Source: an uncultured Ketobacter sp. (GTDB taxonomy: Bacteria; Pseudomonadota; Gammaproteobacteria; Pseudomonadales; Ketobacteraceae). Taken from it: 32,000 bases of DNA. The notes under the pieces were generated by a model that had not been told where the DNA came from, did not search any database, and was given only the letters and a program-made list of their open reading frames with translations. Position 1 is the first letter of the stretch; every line of letters starts with the position of its first letter. Position numbers and translations under genes: made by a program. Below, in pieces: positions 15,672 to 31,653 of the stretch. The DNA lies in the NCBI GenBank assembly GCA_964016105.1, contig CAXHEX010000012.1, forward strand, positions 57,855 through 89,854, written 5' to 3'.

Positions 15672-15887
15672 TTACAAATCCTCTTCATACCACCCGTAAG
15701 GATCAGTGCCATTGTCAAACTTCCGGGTACGGAAATTATAATTGCCAGTCAGGTCGCCATCCTCAGAATCATCTTCTTCGGATGTGACGACGCCAGCAGC
15801 CAGCAAGCCAATAAGGCCAGCGACAAGTTTGCTCGTGACGCCAATGATTGCTTTCAGAACTAATAATAATTTTCTTGAATAGTGCAT
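15672..15887 (-). CDS. Hypothetical small membrane protein with an acidic C-terminal tail
   Basis: The ORF track gives 15672..16004, but that overlaps the GNAT gene by 50 nt. Internal ATGs at 15938 or 15887 avoid the overlap. Sequence: MHYSRKLLLVLKAIIGVTSKLVAGLIGLLAAGVV then TSEEDDSEDGD...GWYEEDL. No clear Shine-Dalgarno sequence for either start. Confidence 0.3.
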   Translation of the reverse strand: MHYSRKLLLVLKAIIGVTSKLVAGLIGLLAAGVVTSEEDDSEDGDLTGNYNFRTRKFDNGTDPYGWYEEDL

Positions 15888-15954
15888 AGTGCTTGGGCTC
15901 AGGACGCGCCGCAACGCTGCGCGCTCCTTGAATCTCATGGTTATGTTCGCGTAG

Positions 15955-16491
15955 TTACCAATAAACGGGATCATTAAATTCCTTAACGCATATGGGGCGT
16001 TCATTAATAGCTGGAATTGGCTCTCCCGTTAATGATTGGCCAAGCCAGCCTACTGGCATTGAGAGCTTTAGAGGGGCCTGGATGATATCTTCTGACAGGG
16101 GTTCAAATCCCACCTTTGAGTAGAAGGATGGATCACCATATGTGATAGCAACACTCACAGAACTATTTTTCAGTTCATTGAGTCCATAATTGATTAGTGC
16201 CTGGCCTACGCCTTTTCCCTGATGTTTAGTGCTCACTGCAACCGGAGCGAGCATATAAACCAGAATAGACCCATTAAACCGAAGGCGAGTAAAGAAAATA
16301 GAACCAATAAGCGATTCATTTTGAAATGTGCCGAGACAGATTATTTCTTCATTGTCGATATTGGAGGATAGCTCTGAGGCAAGATTGCCAATTAGCTTAC
16401 CTTCTTCGTCTCCTTCAGATGATGTGAAAACAGACGTGAAAAGCCTCGTCACTTCATTTTGATAGTTTTTGTCGAGAACCTTATGCTTCAT
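15955..16491 (-). CDS. GNAT-family N-acetyltransferase
   Basis: 178 aa. Acetyl-CoA binding motif A: VSTKHQGKGVGQALINYGL. AGGA lies 7 nt upstream of the ATG. The region is visibly more AT-rich than its flanks. Confidence 0.8.
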   Translation of the reverse strand: MKHKVLDKNYQNEVTRLFTSVFTSSEGDEEGKLIGNLASELSSNIDNEEIICLGTFQNESLIGSIFFTRLRFNGSILVYMLAPVAVSTKHQGKGVGQALINYGLNELKNSSVSVAITYGDPSFYSKVGFEPLSEDIIQAPLKLSMPVGWLGQSLTGEPIPAINERPICVKEFNDPVYW

Positions 16492-16671: not shown

Positions 16672-17670
16672 TCAGAACTCCCCATCCCGGACCACATTAC
16701 CTTTGCTGATTATCTTGACAGTTTTAGGATGAACCGGTTCGTTGTCCGGCAGCAGTCCCTTGCCTTTCTCAATCACCTTGGCAGCGACACTGGTCAGCTT
16801 GCCTAATGTGTCAGAACCGGCAAGCGCCTTGCTATCGCTATAGTAGTCAAACCAGGGCAGCCCGGCACTCGTGTAATCTTTAGCTGTCGGCGGCGTATGC
16901 GGGGGCTGGTGCCCTGTGATTGACAGATATTGCTCACTGTTGGCCAGGTGGACGAAGCACCGGAAGCCATTGTCCAGATCCCAGGCATCGATGCCGTACT
17001 CGTCCTCGTAGATCTCCTGCCGCATCAAGCCGCCTGGAGCAAGTCCCATATCCGGAGCAGCGGATTCGCAGACCGTGCGACTGAACATTGGCATCTCGAG
17101 GTAGTCCATGTCTGCTTCCACGGTGCGCTCGAAATGTTCGACGTAAACATCATGCTTCATCGGGTAGACGATGATCTGGAGTCCGCCATGTTCAGCCTTA
17201 CCGGTAATCTGCTCCTCGGCTGTAAATCCTTCACCAAGCGGCATGGCGACAAACTGCCGTATGAAAGCCTCCGAGACGTTGAAACCGTCCAGCCAGGGCT
17301 GCTCCGGAATCACCGCATAGTCCTGCGGATCAGCCGAAAGCCCATTGCTCCAGTGCTCCCCGGAAACCGCGTTGATCTTGCCGGCGGCAATCTTGACGGC
17401 GCAGGGGTAGTCACCTGAGAAATTGATCCAAAGCGCCTCTGACTGATACATGGGTATGAAGACGCCACCATGTGTCCGCCAGGTATCAGGCAAGTTGTCT
17501 GCGAAGTCATCTACGTGCTCCACCGGGAAACGACCCAAGCCCGGGGGGAGGGGGTATTCCCGGTTGTCATCCGGGATCCGCAGGGTGCGTTGGAAGTCGA
17601 TGCTACACGCCGCTTTCTTGTGGACCTCCGGAAACCGGAAGGTCAGTTGGTTGTTCATTAGTTCGATCAT
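16672..17670 (-). CDS. Hypothetical protein of unknown function (332 aa)
   Basis: Good Shine-Dalgarno sequence (GGGGAG 8 nt upstream of the ATG). It starts 33 nt after the stop of the XRE gene. No catalytic or nucleotide-binding motif that I recognise. Notable segments: LRIPDDNREYPLPPGLGRFP, QPWLDGF, FVAMPLGEGFTAEEQITG, GGLQIIVYP. Confidence 0.6.
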   Translation of the reverse strand: MIELMNNQLTFRFPEVHKKAACSIDFQRTLRIPDDNREYPLPPGLGRFPVEHVDDFADNLPDTWRTHGGVFIPMYQSEALWINFSGDYPCAVKIAAGKINAVSGEHWSNGLSADPQDYAVIPEQPWLDGFNVSEAFIRQFVAMPLGEGFTAEEQITGKAEHGGLQIIVYPMKHDVYVEHFERTVEADMDYLEMPMFSRTVCESAAPDMGLAPGGLMRQEIYEDEYGIDAWDLDNGFRCFVHLANSEQYLSITGHQPPHTPPTAKDYTSAGLPWFDYYSDSKALAGSDTLGKLTSVAAKVIEKGKGLLPDNEPVHPKTVKIISKGNVVRDGEF

Positions 17671-17703
17671 TGTCTTTTCTCCCCTGAGTCAATAATTCAG
17701 GTG

Positions 17704-18054
17704 TTACCAGTCGCCATCACGGACATCCCGGGCAATACGCAACAGCGCGTGATCCGGTGCGGATTTGAGCTGGCGGATCAGGTCAGCGAACAGTTGCGGC
17801 CGCTTGCGAATGATCTCCTGCAAATCCGTCGATACCTTCCCGGCCATTGCCAGCAGCACATCCGGGTCTTCGCCGAGCTCCTCGGCTAATGCCCGGATCT
17901 TCGCCTCCGACGGTGGCGCCACATCCCCGCGTTCTATCTTGCTGAGATAGGCGGGCTCCACGCCGATTCGCTGAGCGACCTGCCGGACGGAAAACCGCCG
18001 ATCCTCTGACTTCAGGGCCTCGCGATGTTTACGGATGTATTCTCCGAATGTCAT
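17704..18054 (-). CDS. XRE-family helix-turn-helix transcriptional regulator
   Basis: 116 aa from the ATG at 18054. HTH segment FSVRQVAQRIGVEPAYLSKIERG. The ORF-track start at 18234 would overlap the preceding gene and read across the palindrome and promoter, so I rejected it. Confidence 0.8.
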   Translation of the reverse strand: MTFGEYIRKHREALKSEDRRFSVRQVAQRIGVEPAYLSKIERGDVAPPSEAKIRALAEELGEDPDVLLAMAGKVSTDLQEIIRKRPQLFADLIRQLKSAPDHALLRIARDVRDGDW

Positions 18055-18089
18055 GTGTACTATATAGTACACATTTGTTTCTGAGGCAA
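18053..18089 (-). promoter_or_regulatory. Putative sigma70 promoter with a perfect 22-bp palindromic operator; a leaderless mRNA is predicted
   Basis: The - strand reads TTGCCT (18089-18084), a 17-nt spacer, TATATA (18066-18061), GTACAC, then ATG (18054). The palindrome ATGTGTACTATATAGTACACAT (18053-18074) contains the -10 box and the first two bases of the start codon. Confidence 0.55.
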
Positions 18090-18145: not shown

Positions 18146-18868
18146 TCACTGCCACGAGCGCAGGCCCACGGACTGGCTGCCACTACCTTCTGACCTAACC
18201 TCGAGATTTGGGCTCTTTGATGCAAGGTAGGCAATGGGTTGATCCAGGACGAAGGGATAGAGCACTGTCAAGGAGGACAGTGTTGGGATGGGCACAGCTT
18301 TCCCAACATAGCGAAGTGCCGCCTCGATCAACCAGGCAACGGCCTGATCATTTGTGATGACGATCAGATCCTTCCGTACCAATCGTTTGCCATTTTCTAC
18401 TCTTTCAATTGCTCCCCAACTCGCCTGGCTCTGAATGACCATATTGGTCATGCGCCGGGTACCTTCACGTTCGCCATAGGTTTCACTCATCCGACGATGA
18501 AGTTCGGCTGAGGAACAGTCACCTTGTAACGCAGAAAGGCGCCCTACCAGCTCAGCGACCTTCCCGAAGAACGGGTAGGTGGCAATCGCCATTCCCCAAG
18601 TTAGCGCAGCTATAGGCGTGCTCGGATCTGCCTTGAATATCTCGACACCTTTCTCAGCAAAACCAGAAAGCTCAGGGCGCGGTTCTAACCAAAGCCGGTT
18701 CAACACAGTCCGGGTTTTTTTGCGCGCAGCTGCGCCAAGGCCCGCATCATCCAGCAAGGTATCTAGTTCGTCGAGCGTACCGAAATCAGCACGAACCCGC
18801 AGGGCAGCTGCTGCCCATTCGAGCGGGATAAAGCGGTCAAAACCAATTTTAGGTGCTGATGGTGTCAT
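18146..18868 (-). CDS. brxA: Putative BrxA (terminal gene of the type 3 BREX operon)
   Basis: 240 aa. It starts 5 nt after the pglZ stop. The assignment rests only on position, since BREX type 3 order ends in brxA. I did not recognise any diagnostic motif. Confidence 0.45.
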   Translation of the reverse strand: MTPSAPKIGFDRFIPLEWAAAALRVRADFGTLDELDTLLDDAGLGAAARKKTRTVLNRLWLEPRPELSGFAEKGVEIFKADPSTPIAALTWGMAIATYPFFGKVAELVGRLSALQGDCSSAELHRRMSETYGEREGTRRMTNMVIQSQASWGAIERVENGKRLVRKDLIVITNDQAVAWLIEAALRYVGKAVPIPTLSSLTVLYPFVLDQPIAYLASKSPNLEVRSEGSGSQSVGLRSWQ

Positions 18869-18873
18869 ACAGT

Positions 18874-20868
18874 TCAGTTCACGTATCTCACTTTAATAAA
18901 AGGTACCAGCAGCTCTTCGACGGATATTCCGCCATGAACTACCACCTGATCATCCTTGGTTACAAATGCCCTGCGGCCCTCAGCAAATAGAGGCATGAAG
19001 TTCGCAGGTAGTCCAGCTATATCGAGTCGAAAGGTATCCCCATAGGTTGCTTGAGTTTCAGCAACCATGGCTTCGTTGCGATAGGCCCGGACGCGCTCAC
19101 CACGCATTTCGGATGCGACACCCTGATTGGGTCTGCCTATCCCGACCGCCTCAACATTGCCGTGATCGGCGGTCAGATAGACATGGAAGCCGTTGTTTAG
19201 CAGCATGGAAAAAAGACGCTCGACAAAGCCCGATTCGCACCAGCTTTTGATTTGGGCCGCTACGCCCCGTTTACCGAGTACCGCGCCATGGATAATCTCA
19301 TCGACGGTATCCACCACAAGCCCGGCAAGCTTTACTGATGGATTGGTGAGTTCCGCCTCAAGGGCGGGAAGATCGTCATTACGTTTGATGGACTTCTGGT
19401 AGAACACTTCGCTGGCATTGATGCCATGATCCTGCCAAAAGCGCTTCCATTGGCCTGGTTCCTTGGATGTCGACTCAATACTGTCGGCAAACTCACGGGG
19501 TCTTAGGCCGGAAAATAATGCCTGCCGGGAGACTGACGTTAACGTCGGCAGCCAGGCGAAGCAGGTGTGCTCGTCAAACATCAACCTTTGCGACTGGTTG
19601 ATCACGCTTTCGCGTATCTGGACCCACTGATCGACCGCCAGTCCATCAAAGACCACCAAGGCGATCTTCTGCTCTCCCTCATCCCGGCACATGGATAAGT
19701 AGCGCGGGATGTGGTGGACCATGATAGGTCCTTTGGCGGCGGGCAGAGATGGCAGGTCAGCGAAATGCTTTTCGACCCATTCACACAATCGCGCATCAGC
19801 TGCATCGAGCAGATCTTGCATTGCATCTTTAATGCTTTCGGCATAATGCGCATCCAGCCCATGAAACCGCGACAAGATTTCACCCATGCGACGGGAGAAG
19901 TGGGTCCAATCACGGTGAGATGACTCAACCGTCGGCAATTCACCCGTTAGGTTCTGAATACCATCGCGGACCAGGATTTGCATCGATGCCGGATCTTGCA
20001 CAACGCCCAGCTTGGCCCACTCAGGCAACGCTGTCGGTACACCCTGAACAACGAGCGGGTGTAACGTGCCATCCAGGAACATGGAGTCGATAATCACACG
20101 CACATCATGGTGATCGAAAGGAACCTCTATCTTGGCGACATAATTTTCTGGTGCCGGTTCGCCCATCCGAGATCCGGTGATTCCTTGTTGGGTCAAATAG
20201 CGATACCAGGCATCTTGAACAACGCGCAGGGTGACACTTTTGTGGGCGAACAACTCGGCGATGGGAATACCTTCAAACGTGTCGTGCTCTCCAAGCACTT
20301 GCTCGACATGCTGTGCCAGCACGGCCGGGAGCGGTGTGTCTCCATAATGAAGCCGAAGCAATTCACGCCAAAGGTCTTCTGGACGTGTCAGCAGATGGGG
20401 GCTGATTCGGAAGATATGCGTCAGCACGAACTCCTTGGTGGCCGCTTCGCCCAACGACTGATGTGCATGCTTTGCCTGGGCCGCAAACAGCGAAGGCCAC
20501 ATGTCGCTGCCCAACTGCTTTACCACGGCATAGCTTAGTTTCGGGAATAGCTCTGTGAGCCCCAGACTGAGCTTGCGTGCCTGGCGTAGGTAGTCCCAGG
20601 GGAGGTCGTTGGTGTTGGTGCCCCGAAGATGAAGAACAAGTGCGTTAGATGGCGCTGGTTGGCCGTGGTCCCAGGCGTCGCGATAGCGTTCCTCGTACTC
20701 CGCCCGAAAGGCGACACTATCCTCGAAGGGCAGCACTTCGAAACCTCGCTCACGCAAACCGGACAGAACCTGCTCATCCAGCAAAACATCGTCTGGGTCC
20801 GAGACGACCCACAGTCGAGCCAGATCTGCCGGAAACTCCTTGAGGATACGGTCAACCCAAAGCGTCAT
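18874..20868 (-). CDS. pglZ: PglZ, alkaline-phosphatase-superfamily BREX protein
   Basis: I prefer the ATG at 20868 (MTLWVDRILKEF), which overlaps the helicase TGA (ATGA). C-terminal PglZ-type motifs: VVFDGLAVDQW, LPTLTSVSRQALFSG, YLTADHGN. Confidence 0.8.
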   Translation of the reverse strand: MTLWVDRILKEFPADLARLWVVSDPDDVLLDEQVLSGLRERGFEVLPFEDSVAFRAEYEERYRDAWDHGQPAPSNALVLHLRGTNTNDLPWDYLRQARKLSLGLTELFPKLSYAVVKQLGSDMWPSLFAAQAKHAHQSLGEAATKEFVLTHIFRISPHLLTRPEDLWRELLRLHYGDTPLPAVLAQHVEQVLGEHDTFEGIPIAELFAHKSVTLRVVQDAWYRYLTQQGITGSRMGEPAPENYVAKIEVPFDHHDVRVIIDSMFLDGTLHPLVVQGVPTALPEWAKLGVVQDPASMQILVRDGIQNLTGELPTVESSHRDWTHFSRRMGEILSRFHGLDAHYAESIKDAMQDLLDAADARLCEWVEKHFADLPSLPAAKGPIMVHHIPRYLSMCRDEGEQKIALVVFDGLAVDQWVQIRESVINQSQRLMFDEHTCFAWLPTLTSVSRQALFSGLRPREFADSIESTSKEPGQWKRFWQDHGINASEVFYQKSIKRNDDLPALEAELTNPSVKLAGLVVDTVDEIIHGAVLGKRGVAAQIKSWCESGFVERLFSMLLNNGFHVYLTADHGNVEAVGIGRPNQGVASEMRGERVRAYRNEAMVAETQATYGDTFRLDIAGLPANFMPLFAEGRRAFVTKDDQVVVHGGISVEELLVPFIKVRYVN

Positions 20869-23690
20869 TGGTTTGCGCCCTCTTGGCTGCCAATACGGAG
20901 CATGATCACCGCATTGAGATCGGGCGTGCAATTTTCAGCGTCCGCCAGGGCCGCCATTCTTGCTTGGTGTTCGGCCTCTAGTCGTTTGCGGCGATGTTCC
21001 CGCACAGCGGGGAGACCGATCCGTCCTATGGCCTGGTGGCGTGCTTCAAACGCATAGCGCGCTCGTTCACGCTCGCCGGCCAACCATTCGCGGTGTTCTT
21101 CCAGTAACCCTGAGAACACAGACTCCCCTTGGGTTTTAGCCGCTGCCAGCGATGACTCGAACCACTCCAAGGCGCTCTCTGCCTCGACGGCTGGGGCGAG
21201 TGATACCGTCTCGGTCAGCAGCAGATCCCAGATTCGTTTGGCGGTGGGTACAAAAGTGCGGCCATCATTCGCCACGAACACCGGCAAGAAACGTTTTCGA
21301 CTAAAGCTGTCTGAGGCACTGGAGGCGCTGAGACTAATCTCCCAAAGCGACCACACCCCCTGTACCGTGCCAGGTAGGCCTGTCACCGTGGTGATTGGCA
21401 GCGGCAGGCCGGCTACACAACGTGGCAGCTCACCAATTACTGCACGTGCGCGTGAGTCCTCGAGGGTGATCCACTCTATGTCTGGGTTTTGTTCGGCGGT
21501 GCGTGCATCGAAGCAAACTCGGGGCGACTCGCTCCCATCTGCCCACTTTACGCGCCAGGCATCACCTGCTTTCTCAGCTGAACCGTTCCGAGTTGGCAGG
21601 CCATTAACGATGGCCCGTTCAAGCCAATACTGGGCCGGATGGTCACGCCACTTGCGGGCATCATCTGCCTCCAGTGTGTGGTCTTCCGTTAACAGATCGG
21701 TATCTTCTCGGCTGGCGGCAACCTTCTCACGTACCTGGTCAATGACGGCGTCACATTCCTTGTCGATGGATTCGGGGTCTTGCAGTCCATGCACAAAGAG
21801 CTCATCGAAGATGGGCTCCACTTCAACTGAATCCATCACGTCCGCTGCTTTGTCGACGCCAAACTCCTGGGCAATAACCTCGAGTTTATGTTCCAGCACC
21901 TCGCGCACCCGGTGCTCCACCGTGTCATCCAGAACGAGGTTGATTGCACGCACCACATGCGGCTGGCCGATACGATCCACACGGCCGATGCGCTGTTCCA
22001 GTCGCATGGGGTTCCACGGCATATCGAAATTGACGACGACGTGGCAGAACTGCAGATTCAGACCTTCGCCACCCGCATCGGTGGAAATCAGCACTCTCAT
22101 ATCGCGTGAGAAGGCTTGTTGAGCGCGAGTACGGGCGTCCAGGTCCATACCGCCGTTGAGCAGTGCCACGGAAAATCCGCGGCTCTCAAGAAACTCTGCC
22201 AGCATCGCTTGGGTCGGTACGAATTCGGTGAAGATCAGAACCTTAAGTTGGGGGTCATTCTCTTCCTGCTGGAGTTTGTAGATCAGCTCCAACAGCGCCT
22301 CAGCCTTGGCGTCGGCGCCCTGGCGCTCGGTTTCGCGCGCCAGCTCCAGTAGCATCTCTACCTCCGCCTTCTCCCGTTCCCAGCCACTGGTCTGTACGGC
22401 AATCTCGAGTTGGGATTGGCCGTCCAGCTCTGCCCACTCGTCGACATCCGGTTCATCAAACAGGTTCGTTTGTAATTGGGGTGTCTCCAGCAGCGTCAGG
22501 CGTTTTTCCAGAGTAGTGCGAATCGCGGCAGTGCTGGATGTGACCAGCCGCTGCATCAAGATCATCAAGAAGCCGATGTGTCGCTGCTTGGCTGCCAAAG
22601 CCTGGTTGTAACCATGGCGCACATAATCCGTTACGGACTCATAGAGCCGTTGCTGCGCAGCATGCTTATCCAGCCAGGCAACGGGTAAAAGGCGAGTCGC
22701 TCTCGGCTTGAACAGGGGTTGGCCTTCGGCAGTGATGGAGACTCGTTTTTCGGTACGAATCACAAAGGGGCGCACCCGCTCATGGTTGATGCTGGACTCA
22801 TCGGGGAAGGAGTCACGGTCCAGCAATTGCATCAGCCGCATGAACTGATCCGTTTTACCCTGATGCGGTGTTGCAGACAGCAACAGCAGATAGGGGGCGG
22901 CTTCGGAGAGTGCCGCGCCCAGCTTATAGCGGGCTACCTGTTCGGTACTGCCGCCAAGGCGGTGCGACTCATCGATGATCACCAGGTCCCATCCGGCTGA
23001 GATCAGATCCTCGAAGCGTTCGCGGTTGTAGGTGTTGAGCTGTTCCAGGCTCCAGCCACGCCGTTTTTCAATCGGCTTCACCGAGTCCAGGGAACAGATT
23101 ACCTGGTCGTGCATCCGCCAAAGATTGTCCTCTTCATCTCGCCACTGCCGGAAGGCGGTAATCTCGGAAGGTTCGATAAACCGGAAGTTCTCACCGAAGT
23201 GCAGGCGCATCTCGGCCTGCCACTGACGCACCAGCCCTTTGGGGGCGACGACGAGCACTCGCCGCACCATGCCGCGCAGTTTGAGCTCGCGCAGAATCAA
23301 GCCTGCCTCGATGGTTTTACCGAGACCTACCTCATCGGCCAGCAGGTAGCGGATACGGTCCCGGCTCATGGCCCGATTCAGGGCATAGAGCTGGTGTGGT
23401 AATGGCACCACGCTGGACTGGATCGGCGCCAGCAGCAGGTTGTCTTCCAGGGCATCGAGCAGCTTGGCCGCGGCGGTAGTGTGCAGAATCTGCTCAACCG
23501 TTGGCTGTACGCTGGACAGATCGGCGAGATCCTCGGAACGGGCGCGCACAACCGCATCCTTGTTCGGCAGCCAGATCCGATAGGCTAGTTCTCCCCACAG
23601 GTTTTGGCGATCGACTACCCGGCAGGGTGAAGCCTGCCGAGCATGCCAACACCAATCACCGATGCCAAACCCCGTTACAGCATCCGTCAC
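20865..23690 (-). CDS. brxHII: SNF2/RapA-like superfamily 2 helicase (BrxHII)
   Basis: 941 aa. Motif I LADEVGLGKTIEAG, II VIIDESHRL, III LLSATP, V STDAGGEGLNLQ, VI QRIGRVDRIGQ. The GTG start overlaps the methyltransferase stop (GTGA). Confidence 0.85.
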   Translation of the reverse strand: MTDAVTGFGIGDWCWHARQASPCRVVDRQNLWGELAYRIWLPNKDAVVRARSEDLADLSSVQPTVEQILHTTAAAKLLDALEDNLLLAPIQSSVVPLPHQLYALNRAMSRDRIRYLLADEVGLGKTIEAGLILRELKLRGMVRRVLVVAPKGLVRQWQAEMRLHFGENFRFIEPSEITAFRQWRDEEDNLWRMHDQVICSLDSVKPIEKRRGWSLEQLNTYNRERFEDLISAGWDLVIIDESHRLGGSTEQVARYKLGAALSEAAPYLLLLSATPHQGKTDQFMRLMQLLDRDSFPDESSINHERVRPFVIRTEKRVSITAEGQPLFKPRATRLLPVAWLDKHAAQQRLYESVTDYVRHGYNQALAAKQRHIGFLMILMQRLVTSSTAAIRTTLEKRLTLLETPQLQTNLFDEPDVDEWAELDGQSQLEIAVQTSGWEREKAEVEMLLELARETERQGADAKAEALLELIYKLQQEENDPQLKVLIFTEFVPTQAMLAEFLESRGFSVALLNGGMDLDARTRAQQAFSRDMRVLISTDAGGEGLNLQFCHVVVNFDMPWNPMRLEQRIGRVDRIGQPHVVRAINLVLDDTVEHRVREVLEHKLEVIAQEFGVDKAADVMDSVEVEPIFDELFVHGLQDPESIDKECDAVIDQVREKVAASREDTDLLTEDHTLEADDARKWRDHPAQYWLERAIVNGLPTRNGSAEKAGDAWRVKWADGSESPRVCFDARTAEQNPDIEWITLEDSRARAVIGELPRCVAGLPLPITTVTGLPGTVQGVWSLWEISLSASSASDSFSRKRFLPVFVANDGRTFVPTAKRIWDLLLTETVSLAPAVEAESALEWFESSLAAAKTQGESVFSGLLEEHREWLAGERERARYAFEARHQAIGRIGLPAVREHRRKRLEAEHQARMAALADAENCTPDLNAVIMLRIGSQEGANQ

Positions 23691-30229: not shown

Positions 30230-30706
30230 CTAACCCTTTTTTTCAATTACAAATGGGACCAGGCCATCCAGGCCGTAGTCCTGATATTCCGGATGCCCCA
30301 TCTGGGCATAGGTCAATCGACCATCAACGAGCTCCCCTGGCCATACCGCCACCACTCGTCGGCTGTGAGCGTGGCGCTTGAGCAGATCCAACGGATCGAG
30401 CTTGAGCGTCTGATCGAATAGCAGCTCGATGTTGTCGAGCAGCAGCAAATCGCCATTGGCGTCCTCATCGGCCAGCTCGCGCAGAATGACGTTGGTCTGC
30501 AGCGCCCTTTGCCGCTGAGGTATTGCCGCGAGACGGTTTCCTGCCGTCGCACCGACATTCATTACCTTCATATCCCGCTGATTGGCCAGTGCGGCAAGGA
30601 GGGCTGTCTTGCCACTGCCTGGCTGGCCTATCAACAGGATCAGCTTGCTGTGCAGTGCGCCCACCTCGTCGACAAGTTGTGCAAGTTTTTCCAGCATCCG
30701 CACCAT
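30230..30706 (-). CDS. brxF: Small P-loop ATPase, BrxF-like
   Basis: The start is placed at the ATG at 30706 (MVRMLEKL), overlapping the upstream stop by 1 nt (TGATG). An ATG at 30697 is an alternative. Walker A GQPGSGKT and Walker B LLLLDNIE. About 158 aa. Confidence 0.65.
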   Translation of the reverse strand: MVRMLEKLAQLVDEVGALHSKLILLIGQPGSGKTALLAALANQRDMKVMNVGATAGNRLAAIPQRQRALQTNVILRELADEDANGDLLLLDNIELLFDQTLKLDPLDLLKRHAHSRRVVAVWPGELVDGRLTYAQMGHPEYQDYGLDGLVPFVIEKKG

Positions 30707-31653
30707 CACTCCATCTCGGCTTCGAGCCGCTGCTGATCGGGGGATCGATAGCCAGGTGCGATAACAAGGTTCTCTACGCCATAGAGTGCCTGCCTGTTCT
30801 TCAGCCAAAGGTGGTACTCAGGTCCTTTTAGACTGTGATCTTCTGAGCAGTCCACATTCCACCGGCGAAGTACGTAACCTGCGACAGCAGCTCGAACGTT
30901 GACATTCAACACTCCGTTTTGCATGTCGTAGTCGGCTTCTATTGTTTTGGGATGCTTGAGACTGGGATGTGGCACGATTTCCAGTTCTACAATTCGATTC
31001 CACTGGATATCCGATTCCCGAGTTTCATGTTCTTTGATCATGCTGTCGGTGATCGTCGGGTCAAAGATGCGCGTGATTACGAAATCTGAGAATCTGGATT
31101 GCCGCCGGTCGTAGCCGCGGACATGCCAGCGCAGACCGTTATCTACCAGTACAAATGGCACAATTTCACGTGTAGTTCGGCCGCTGCTCAGGGAGCGGTA
31201 GCCAATTTTTACCGCTTTTTCTTGATGGATCGCGCGGGTTAAAACAGACAGCGTCGATAGGGAAGGCCTGTTCAGTTGTGCGGGCATCTCGCACGCAATG
31301 AAGCCCTTGTGCGTACCAACGAAGTCATCACCGAATCCGTATGCAAGGGCTGCCAGCGCCTGGCTGGAGGAGTAGTCGAAAAGCGGTTCAAAAGCGTTCG
31401 AGCGGGTGTAGATTTTGGCCTTGGTGTCGTATTCCAGATTCTTCGGGGCCAGTTCCTTATATAAGGTGATGTCCCTGGTCGCAGCCGCTTCCTTGATGCC
31501 AAATCGGCTGACGATGTCATTTCGGCCGATGGTGCCCAGGAAGCAGACCTTGAAATCGATGTGAGACAAGCGTTCCTTCTGCGTCTGATTAATATCTTCT
31601 AGCCGCATGACTGGCATGTGATCACCTATTTTTGCCGCATTCGTACCCATCAT
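30706..31653 (-). CDS. brxR: WYL-domain transcriptional regulator with N-terminal wHTH (BrxR-like)
   Basis: WYL-type segment IGYRSLSSGRTTREIVPFVLVDNGLRWHVRGYDRRQSRFSDFVITRI. Putative N-terminal HTH DIVSRFGIKEAAATRDITLYKE. The start is uncertain: 31653 has no Shine-Dalgarno sequence, while 31617 is preceded by AGGTGA. Confidence 0.75.
   Translation of the reverse strand: MMGTNAAKIGDHMPVMRLEDINQTQKERLSHIDFKVCFLGTIGRNDIVSRFGIKEAAATRDITLYKELAPKNLEYDTKAKIYTRSNAFEPLFDYSSSQALAALAYGFGDDFVGTHKGFIACEMPAQLNRPSLSTLSVLTRAIHQEKAVKIGYRSLSSGRTTREIVPFVLVDNGLRWHVRGYDRRQSRFSDFVITRIFDPTITDSMIKEHETRESDIQWNRIVELEIVPHPSLKHPKTIEADYDMQNGVLNVNVRAAVAGYVLRRWNVDCSEDHSLKGPEYHLWLKNRQALYGVENLVIAPGYRSPDQQRLEAEME

Follow-up and report, generated by a model that had tools for sequence, protein, structure and literature searches.

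In the HipBA system of E. coli, the gene for an XRE-type helix-turn-helix (HTH) protein stands first and that for a larger partner second in an autoregulated operon with a palindromic operator, and HipB, the XRE protein of this system, ends in an acidic residue followed by a Trp, which is placed in a pocket of HipA according to those passages of PMC10627512 in which Evdokimov et al. 2009 is cited. The CapH/CapP, ImmR/ImmA and DdrO/IrrE systems similarly combine a small XRE protein bearing a C-terminal extension with a dedicated partner, at mobile or defence loci, and the C proteins of restriction-modification (R-M) systems and the Aca regulators of anti-CRISPR (Acr) operons are small HTH autoregulators found on mobile elements, where a palindrome lies over a strong promoter and expression follows a burst-then-shut-off logic. 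Further, a defence hotspot flanked by TraG is known in the related Pseudomonas PAPI-1/PAGI islands (PMC12629846). The present work concerns a pair of genes that can be compared with all of these systems. It lies in a stretch of 32,000 nucleotides (nt) from an uncultured Ketobacter sp. (contig CAXHEX010000012.1, positions 57,855 to 89,854; hereafter, the window), where a gene for an XRE-family repressor of 116 amino acids (aa) is followed by a gene for a protein of 332 aa. The pair is a self-contained, horizontally mobile two-gene cassette, located between the conjugation genes of an integrative and conjugative element (ICE) and a type 3 BREX (BREX-3) system that is inserted as cargo.

An HTH autorepressor with a partner gene is a familiar regulatory layout, and in the case of HipBA the likeness extends to the order of the genes, to the palindromic operator (here predicted from the sequence) and to the ending of the HTH protein. 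However, the 332-aa partner is not a HipA kinase (there is no Pfam HipA match, and the fold is a different, beta-rich one), it bears the same C-terminal tail as the HTH protein, and it is widespread without an HTH gene. Similarly, although capH is the best PADLOC model for the XRE protein, the 332-aa partner is without the COG2856/ImmA-IrrE metallopeptidase domain or HEXXH that would be expected of a CapP, ImmA or IrrE relative, and no separate regulated operon is evident. In contrast to the R-M systems controlled by C proteins, the downstream gene does not encode a nuclease, no methyltransferase is linked to it, and the PADLOC Control_protein match is at 0.003. The layout of an Aca/anti-CRISPR operon is compatible with that seen here, but the HTH-first order and the size and conservation of the partner, which is not a small Acr, are atypical. 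In the libraries and literature searched, the partner family, its spread across kingdoms and the tail mimicry by the repressor appear to be undescribed; a search of the literature on the pair, on wsv390 and on the Naegleria annotation gave nothing that describes the 332-aa family. The features of the cassette are as follows.

17704..18054, minus strand: gene for the XRE-family repressor (116 aa), with its ATG at 18054 and TAA at 17706-17704, matched by Pfam and PADLOC models.
16672..17670, minus strand: gene for the 332-aa protein, an open reading frame (ORF) read from the sequence.
17679..17684, minus strand: Shine-Dalgarno sequence GGGGAG of the 332-aa gene, 8 nt before its ATG and inside the 33-nt spacer.
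17707..17724, minus strand: codons of the XRE tail VRDGDW, a tail kept in almost all of the 65 pairs described below.
16675..16692, minus strand: codons of the tail VRDGEF of the 332-aa protein, for which the family hallmark is V-[RK]-[DE]-G-x-[W/F]-COOH.
18055..18089, minus strand: promoter and operator of the cassette, read from the sequence, with a predicted function.

An original prediction, made by a model from the letters of the window, had proposed an operon of a small, autoregulated HTH gene and a gene of no assignable function, and both ORFs were found at the limits it gave, on the minus strand and separated by an intergenic spacer of 33 nt in which the second has its strong Shine-Dalgarno sequence; the conserved palindrome at the putative promoter implies that the HTH gene is autoregulated. 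The XRE protein is matched by Pfam HTH_31 (1e-11) and HTH_3 (1.7e-9) and, over residues 1-110, by the PADLOC model capH (1.9e-10), and it consists of an N-terminal HTH region (approximately residues 1-70) and a C-terminal extension ending in VRDGDW-COOH. We also agree with the prediction that the pair is the most unusual item of the window.

The association of the two genes is seen far beyond the window. A genome scan gave at least 595 loci of the 332-aa family, the best 80 of which (57-98% identity) come from Gammaproteobacteria, Alphaproteobacteria, Nitrospira, Caldilineaceae, Dehalococcoidia, Vicinamibacterales, Acidimicrobiia, Poribacteria and others. A full-length XRE gene is present 14-98 nt upstream in 65 of 81 genomic loci of the family, with GGAG-like sites kept in the spacers of related loci, and in these 65 loci, which span Gammaproteobacteria, Alphaproteobacteria, Nitrospira, Chloroflexota, Acidobacteriota, Actinomycetota and others, the XRE protein is exactly 116 aa long with no indel. 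The linkage to the XRE gene, whose examination had been proposed with the prediction, is hence very deeply conserved. Plasmid homologues at 37-48% identity (Euzebya, Bosea) likewise have an XRE gene upstream, and so do about 15 of the 35 viral-contig loci. Counted from the XRE side, a metagenome scan for genes ending in VRDGDW and a stop codon gave 53 XRE-like genes, 51 of them with enough downstream sequence to be assessed, and a member of the 332-aa family follows directly in 47 of the 51, leaving 4 orphans. In two metagenome contigs (L172 and L209), the orphan tail-bearing XRE gene, with no 332-aa gene, is followed by ORFs for an apparent Phd-type antitoxin and an apparent PIN-type toxin.

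Both genes are real and under strong purifying selection, with median dN/dS values among close relatives of 0.05 (XRE gene) and 0.07 (332-aa gene), and their divergences are correlated (r = 0.85). The surroundings of the pair behave differently. The 318 flanking ORFs fell into 245 clusters of heterogeneous Pfam and PADLOC content, which indicates that the context is not conserved, and no conserved third gene was found beyond those that are specific to a lineage, viz. TraG_N and orf110 in the ICEs and a tyrosine recombinase in Poribacteria. In Methylomarinovum the pair lies between Tn5-like transposases, and elsewhere it is found in an ordinary chromosomal neighbourhood or beside a cluster of GmrSD, HNH and cysteine-desulfurase genes, while in Miltoncostaea the order of the HTH and 332-aa genes is reversed and the two overlap. 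Of the enrichment beside defence genes, for which the prediction had suggested a check, a strong form is seen in the ICE lineage only; in the other phyla the neighbours are heterogeneous.

The second characteristic of the pair is the C-terminal tail shared by its two proteins. In nearly every one of the 65 pairs the XRE protein has (V/I)RDG(D/E/N/Q)W-COOH as its ending (in two of them, the first or the second position differs), and an exact VR[DE]GxF ending is seen for the 332-aa protein in 62 of the 65, one of the proteins being truncated. Distant XRE partners retain the tail despite their different operators. The tail is also present where the XRE gene is not, i.e., in XRE-less Poribacteria and viral-contig members and in many representatives of the clusters formed at 50% identity, and the Naegleria and Willaertia proteins listed end exactly in (V/I)RDGDW. 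Within the window no ORF other than these two bears such a tail, and when a third family with the VRDGDW tail was looked for in viral contigs and metagenomes, the real matches belonged essentially to the XRE or the 332-aa family. In the AlphaFold2 model of the 332-aa protein, the last approximately 10 residues have a predicted local distance difference test value (pLDDT) of 54-66 in comparison to >90 for the rest of the model; a tail that is conserved and yet has a low pLDDT fits a linear motif acting in trans. Moreover, members from amoebae and bacteria have no component in common other than the 332-aa domain, which makes it simplest to suppose that this domain itself receives the tail. By analogy with HipB, the shared tail suggests docking of the repressor on its 332-aa partner.

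The third characteristic is the control region. A -35 box TTGCCT (18089-18084) is separated by a 17-nt spacer from TATATA (18066-18061), and a perfect 18-bp palindrome, GTGTACTATATAGTACAC (18072-18055), spans the latter and abuts the ATG of the XRE gene, ahead of which there is no Shine-Dalgarno sequence. Given the -35 box and the 17-nt spacer, the central TATATA should serve as the -10 box, and the transcription start should coincide with the A of the ATG or adjoin it; due to the lack of a Shine-Dalgarno sequence, the XRE mRNA is predicted to be leaderless. Several C genes are known to have leaderless regulator mRNAs. Within the 32 kb of the window the palindrome is present a single time, against 0 occurrences expected, and no further copies of the operator were found there, the BREX locus included. 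The placement of a palindrome at the ATG with a TTGACA-like -35 box upstream is kept in nearly all of 60+ loci from many phyla, many of them with the consensus TTGACA, and in distant pairs the sequence of the palindrome differs whereas its position is kept. From the letters of these control regions we infer a leaderless, negatively autoregulated, bicistronic operon.

The 332-aa protein itself gave no match in Pfam, NCBIfam, PADLOC, PHROGs or the PDB sequences, either as a single sequence or as a profile of 64 relatives, in line with the prediction that it carries no assignable motif. It is acidic (isoelectric point (pI) 4.8) and soluble, and the predicted absence of a membrane segment is borne out by a maximum 19-residue Kyte-Doolittle mean of 0.86. 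The four segments singled out in the prediction as conserved-looking fall in the most conserved blocks of the family alignment, at residues 30-49, 124-130, 140-157 and 271-279. AlphaFold2, which together with Foldseek had been put forward as a check on this protein, gave a confident model (pLDDT 89.5 with 64 sequences and 90.9 with 130; predicted template modelling score (pTM) 0.88 in both cases) that is mainly beta; in it, residues 185-204 form a disordered loop of variable length, and the C-terminal tail is flexible. Foldseek found no solved relative of this model in the PDB; the best matches there, to TEAD YAP-binding domains, have an E-value of 0.17 and a TM of ~0.15 and are noise. Polar residues that are invariant family-wide are Q124, D128, Q139, E152, Q154, Q165 and Q218, and the family alignments contain no invariant Cys, Ser or His. 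HEXXH is absent from the sequence, no Pfam peptidase is matched, and neither a nuclease motif or fold (PD-(D/E)XK, HNH) in the protein nor a conserved neighbouring methyltransferase was found. A CAP-Gly domain, a reader of EEY/F-COOH tails, was considered on account of a GK(I/V)N motif and the acidic-aromatic tails and was rejected, as hhalign of A2 against a hand-written CAP-Gly alignment, its GKNDG motif included, gave a probability of 0.2%. A P-loop, an ADP-ribosyltransferase, the Q/E dyad of eqolisins and the D-T/S-G of aspartic proteases were judged from the alignment and dismissed, with no fold or profile support for any of them.

The family to which this protein belongs is large, comprising >8000 homologues in a 90%-clustered database, all of them unnamed, and at least 4480 clusters at 50% identity (E<=1e-3), and it extends to eukaryotes and their viruses. 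Foldseek against predicted giant-virus proteins matched Harvfovirus A0A3G5A0P2 with an E-value of 4e-21 and a TMq of 0.69, and a Hyperionvirus relative (BFVD A0A3G6...), also a Foldseek match, is annotated with a ubiquitin-like domain. The homologues in Naegleria and Willaertia were found by a search seeded with a distant member; they are 44-50% identical to this bait (P0222), which is 38% identical to the protein of the window. The Harvfovirus protein and that of Naegleria gruberi ("bacterial integral membrane protein-like protein") are true homologues that are equally uncharacterised, and in contrast to the protein of the window, the giant-virus and amoebal homologues have no XRE partner and are in many cases longer, bearing additional domains, e.g. 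ubiquitin-like, or insertions in the variable loop. The extra domains of the long relatives include UBA, ZZ, TPR, Sel1, protein kinase and DUF932, the matches to VWA being weak and sub-threshold, and among the metagenomic relatives P0205, P0300 and P0185 there are fusions to an N-terminal UBA or a C-terminal ZZ zinc finger. The UBA, ZZ and ubiquitin-like fusions are hints of a link to ubiquitin-type signalling in the eukaryotic members.

Intact homologues without an XRE gene are found in at least 15 Poribacteria loci, in phages, in Naegleria and Willaertia and in giant viruses, and in two further loci (L022 and L031) the XRE gene is truncated and the 332-aa ORF is intact. The XRE-less homologue of Poribacteria (L036, L039-L044, L050, L055, L063, L068, L079) carries a Lys/Arg-rich basic N-terminal extension, and a conserved ORF of ~300 aa that is tyrosine-recombinase-like comes directly after it. 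Some genomes have more than one copy, and the two genes may form a small mobile unit. In a phage lineage (IMG/VR L108, L110-L113, L116, L117, L123) the XRE-less homologue lies among genes for a Prim-Pol, a PD-(D/E)XK nuclease and two GT2 glycosyltransferases, a conserved block that looks like a replication/DNA-modification module. A distant homologue on the Bradyrhizobium barranii plasmid pBb1S5b (L089, 3971-8741) has neither an HTH partner nor the tail; behind it come the genes for an M12 metallopeptidase, for a protein of the caspase family and for a trypsin-like peptidase of very large size.

The position of the pair in the window requires separate consideration. Upstream of it lies a complete type 3 BREX system (BrxR-WYL, BrxF, BrxC, PglXI, BrxHII, PglZ and BrxA, all with strong model matches), the brxA stop being at 18146 and the cassette 91 nt downstream on the same strand; no terminator-like site was found on the minus strand between brxA and the XRE gene, just as had been predicted. 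On the opposite side, a gene of the GNAT family and a small ORF are followed by the ICE conjugation genes TraG_N, TraU, DUF1525 and TraC on the plus strand. In the closest relatives (83-98% identity), the pair adjoins the same TraG_N gene, which is 80-99% identical, whereas the gene just upstream of the XRE gene changes from one locus to the next: it encodes a DrmD-like helicase in L002, type I methyltransferases in L004, L005 and L008, Drt3b in L006, DrmA/DrmD of DISARM in L007, IetS in L009, Cas3e in L014 (where there is no TraG_N match) and a different BrxC in L016, with nothing recognisable in L012. BREX-3 is upstream of the pair only in the contig of the window itself, the system of L016 being a different BREX. 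As the pair and TraG_N stay the same and the defence neighbour changes, BREX-3 represents a cargo that can be exchanged and the pair a fixed element, placed at the inner edge of the defence hotspot in this ICE lineage. The earlier description of the pair as appended to the BREX locus therefore finds no support, the more so as the pair has a conserved putative promoter and operator of its own. The position agrees with that of GI-Hotspot 2 in ICEs of the PAPI-1/PAGI type, where variable defence cargo likewise lies beside TraG; however, GI-Hotspot 2 is defined by TraG and a helicase, with XRE mentioned 0 times in the main text (PMC12629846), whereas here the XRE/332-aa pair stands between TraG_N and the cargo. 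One Sedimenticolaceae chromosome (OZ245019.1) carries two ICE ends with the pair, L002 and L007, ~110 kb apart, the cargo of the one being the DrmD-like helicase and that of the other the DISARM genes DrmA/DrmD.

It would be incorrect to interpret the short distance from brxA, the common strand, the absence of a terminator-like site and the occurrence of BREX upstream in one further relative (L016) as showing that the pair is an accessory component or a regulator of the adjacent BREX-3. The other close relatives have other systems in this place, the pair is present in dozens of genomes that lack BREX, its operator has no counterpart in the BREX locus, and the 332-aa protein has 0 matches to PADLOC models, those for BREX included, while the XRE protein matches generic HTH models only. 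An accessory role in BREX is practically excluded.

Based on these observations, the explanation that we favour, though with a confidence that is evenly balanced between its being right and wrong as a whole, is that of a mobile cassette in which a self-repressing XRE protein docks through its tail on the 332-aa effector, with a role in element-host conflict as its guessed purpose. The XRE gene would be transcribed from a near-consensus sigma-70 promoter and translated from a leaderless mRNA, and its product most likely binds the 18-bp palindrome over the -10 box and transcription start, by which it would silence its own bicistronic operon; upon entry to a naive cell, a burst of expression would be followed by repression. 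The conserved 332-aa domain would have a site that receives the VR[D/E]Gx[W/F] tail in trans, and the repressor may dock there by mimicry of that tail, in the manner of the C-terminal Trp of HipB on HipA, so that its activity or stability could be tied to how much effector is present or to the state of the latter. As its output, the cassette would have the acidic, cytoplasmic 332-aa protein itself. Our preferred guess for the latter is a role in the conflict between mobile element and host, either in defence or in counter-defence/establishment, and it is unlikely to be a classical growth-arresting toxin. A more far-reaching version, in which a new cross-kingdom domain of unseen fold reads its own VRDGxW/F tail, the XRE protein copies that tail, and the resulting repressor-effector circuit at the hotspot border possibly serves defence or counter-defence with a ubiquitin-type link in eukaryotes, is tentative, and we regard it as less probable than not by a clear measure.

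Several observations weigh against the favoured explanation. Defence and anti-defence genes are usually fast-evolving, and the 58-64% identity of the family between phyla together with its presence in eukaryotes is unusual for genes of this kind. Outside the ICE lineage the neighbours are mostly ordinary metabolic or regulatory genes, for which reason the conflict role is a guess. One actinobacterial plasmid has a different type of HTH partner, which is located downstream and is without the tail. Further, the tail shared by the two proteins might be a degron common to both or a processing site instead.

Among the rivals, the one to which we give the most weight, while still considering it unlikely, holds that the 332-aa protein is ordinary cargo, i.e., a conserved enzyme or binding protein that acts outside genetic conflict (e.g. 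in protein modification or quality control) and has a dedicated repressor. The very strong purifying selection, the kingdom-spanning family and the housekeeping neighbours at many loci are what one would look for in this case, and the eukaryotic-type UBA, ZZ and ubiquitin-like fusions point to protein-level biology; against this stand the patchy, multi-copy distribution tied to mobile elements and the position at the edge of a defence hotspot in the ICEs, and a tail-mimicking XRE protein suggests more than simple regulation. A patchy, mobile spread in variable contexts, defence islands included, would fit a type II toxin-antitoxin or abortive-infection system, where the 332-aa protein would be the growth-arresting toxin and the XRE protein the antitoxin and co-repressor, neutralising it via the C-terminal tail. 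The HipBA-like layout, in which an HTH gene precedes that of a larger partner and the promoter has a predicted palindromic operator, the HipB-like Trp tail and the reversed, overlapping gene order in Miltoncostaea are in keeping with such a system, as are the orphan XRE genes (4 of 51), since orphan antitoxins are common among toxin-antitoxin families. But the intact, well-conserved XRE-less homologues, many in number and found in several lineages (Poribacteria, phages, amoebae, giant viruses), argue against an obligate toxin, L022 and L031 keep an intact 332-aa ORF beside a truncated XRE gene, no known toxin family or PADLOC model resembles the protein, and the conservation between phyla is unusually high; we consider this reading improbable and rank it after that of ordinary cargo.

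Next in rank, and improbable as well, is an establishment or anti-defence gene under a timer like that of Aca or C proteins, the burst of which would counter host immunity on entry before the XRE protein shuts it off. The cassette directly adjoins ICE conjugation genes and is found also on plasmids, between Tn5-like transposases and on large viral contigs, its homologues in phages are part of an apparent replication/DNA-modification module, the 332-aa protein is acidic (pI as given above), and the near-consensus promoter, overlapping operator and predicted leaderless repressor gene would suit such a timer. However, known anti-defence proteins are usually small, fast-evolving and narrow in distribution, in contrast to a family with the identity across phyla and the eukaryotic members noted above, many loci are in ordinary chromosomal contexts, and the mimicry of the tail is left without a role. 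In a further reading, the 332-aa protein would be an anti-repressor or protease comparable to those of the ImmR/ImmA, DdrO/IrrE and CapH/CapP systems, which senses a signal and inactivates or processes the XRE protein, and processes itself, at VRDG|xW. The same motif on both C-termini, with its invariant Gly at -2, would be a possible recognition or cleavage site. The XRE protein is CapH-like over its whole length, the gene order is as in immR-immA, genes for M12, caspase and trypsin-like peptidases come after the distant homologue L089, and UBA, ZZ or ubiquitin-like domains are fused to certain relatives. Yet there is neither HEXXH nor a family-wide Cys, Ser or His nor a Pfam peptidase match, the loss of two residues hardly inactivates a repressor, and the operator of the cassette is the only one in the window and there is hence no downstream regulon, and this reading is thus a good deal more doubtful than the three before it.

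Some other genes of the window also deserve mention. The GNAT acetyltransferase gene (15955-16491, minus strand; Pfam Acetyltransf_9, 1.5e-9) has a GC content of 0.42 in comparison to 0.56-0.60 around it and is present, among the ICE relatives, only in the contig of the window and in L008; it has the appearance of a recent arrival between the 332-aa gene and the small ORF adjoining TraG_N. The latter ORF (110 aa; 15672-16004, minus strand), which is on the strand of the 332-aa gene and downstream of it and encodes one hydrophobic helix and an acidic C-terminus, directly adjoins TraG_N in the ICE relatives at 52-95% identity, and it may belong to the ICE backbone or else form a third gene of the operon that is specific to this lineage. 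A gene for a WYL-domain (BrxR-like) regulator (30706-31653, minus strand) is the first in the BREX-3 operon, and BREX accordingly has a regulator of its own, distinct from the XRE protein of the cassette. The longest ORF for PglZ (18874-20931, minus strand) has a TTG start, a length of 685 aa and a 67-nt overlap with the end of brxHII, whereas the public gene call on the source contig places the start later (664 aa), which is probably the real one.

The results presented here identify the 332-aa family, which is large and unannotated and for which a confident model but no solved relative is available, as a clear target for structural and functional studies, and the mimicry of its tail by the XRE protein provides a concrete and cheaply testable hypothesis of how a repressor may dock on its effector. 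Further, as the pair marks the inner edge of a TraG-side hotspot in which BREX, DISARM, R-M, DRT, IetAS and CRISPR systems are exchanged, it is a useful anchor for the mining of new defence cargo. If the role in conflict is true, then the amoebal and giant-virus members of this family, together with the UBA, ZZ and ubiquitin-like fusions, would connect bacterial conflict with eukaryotic protein signalling.

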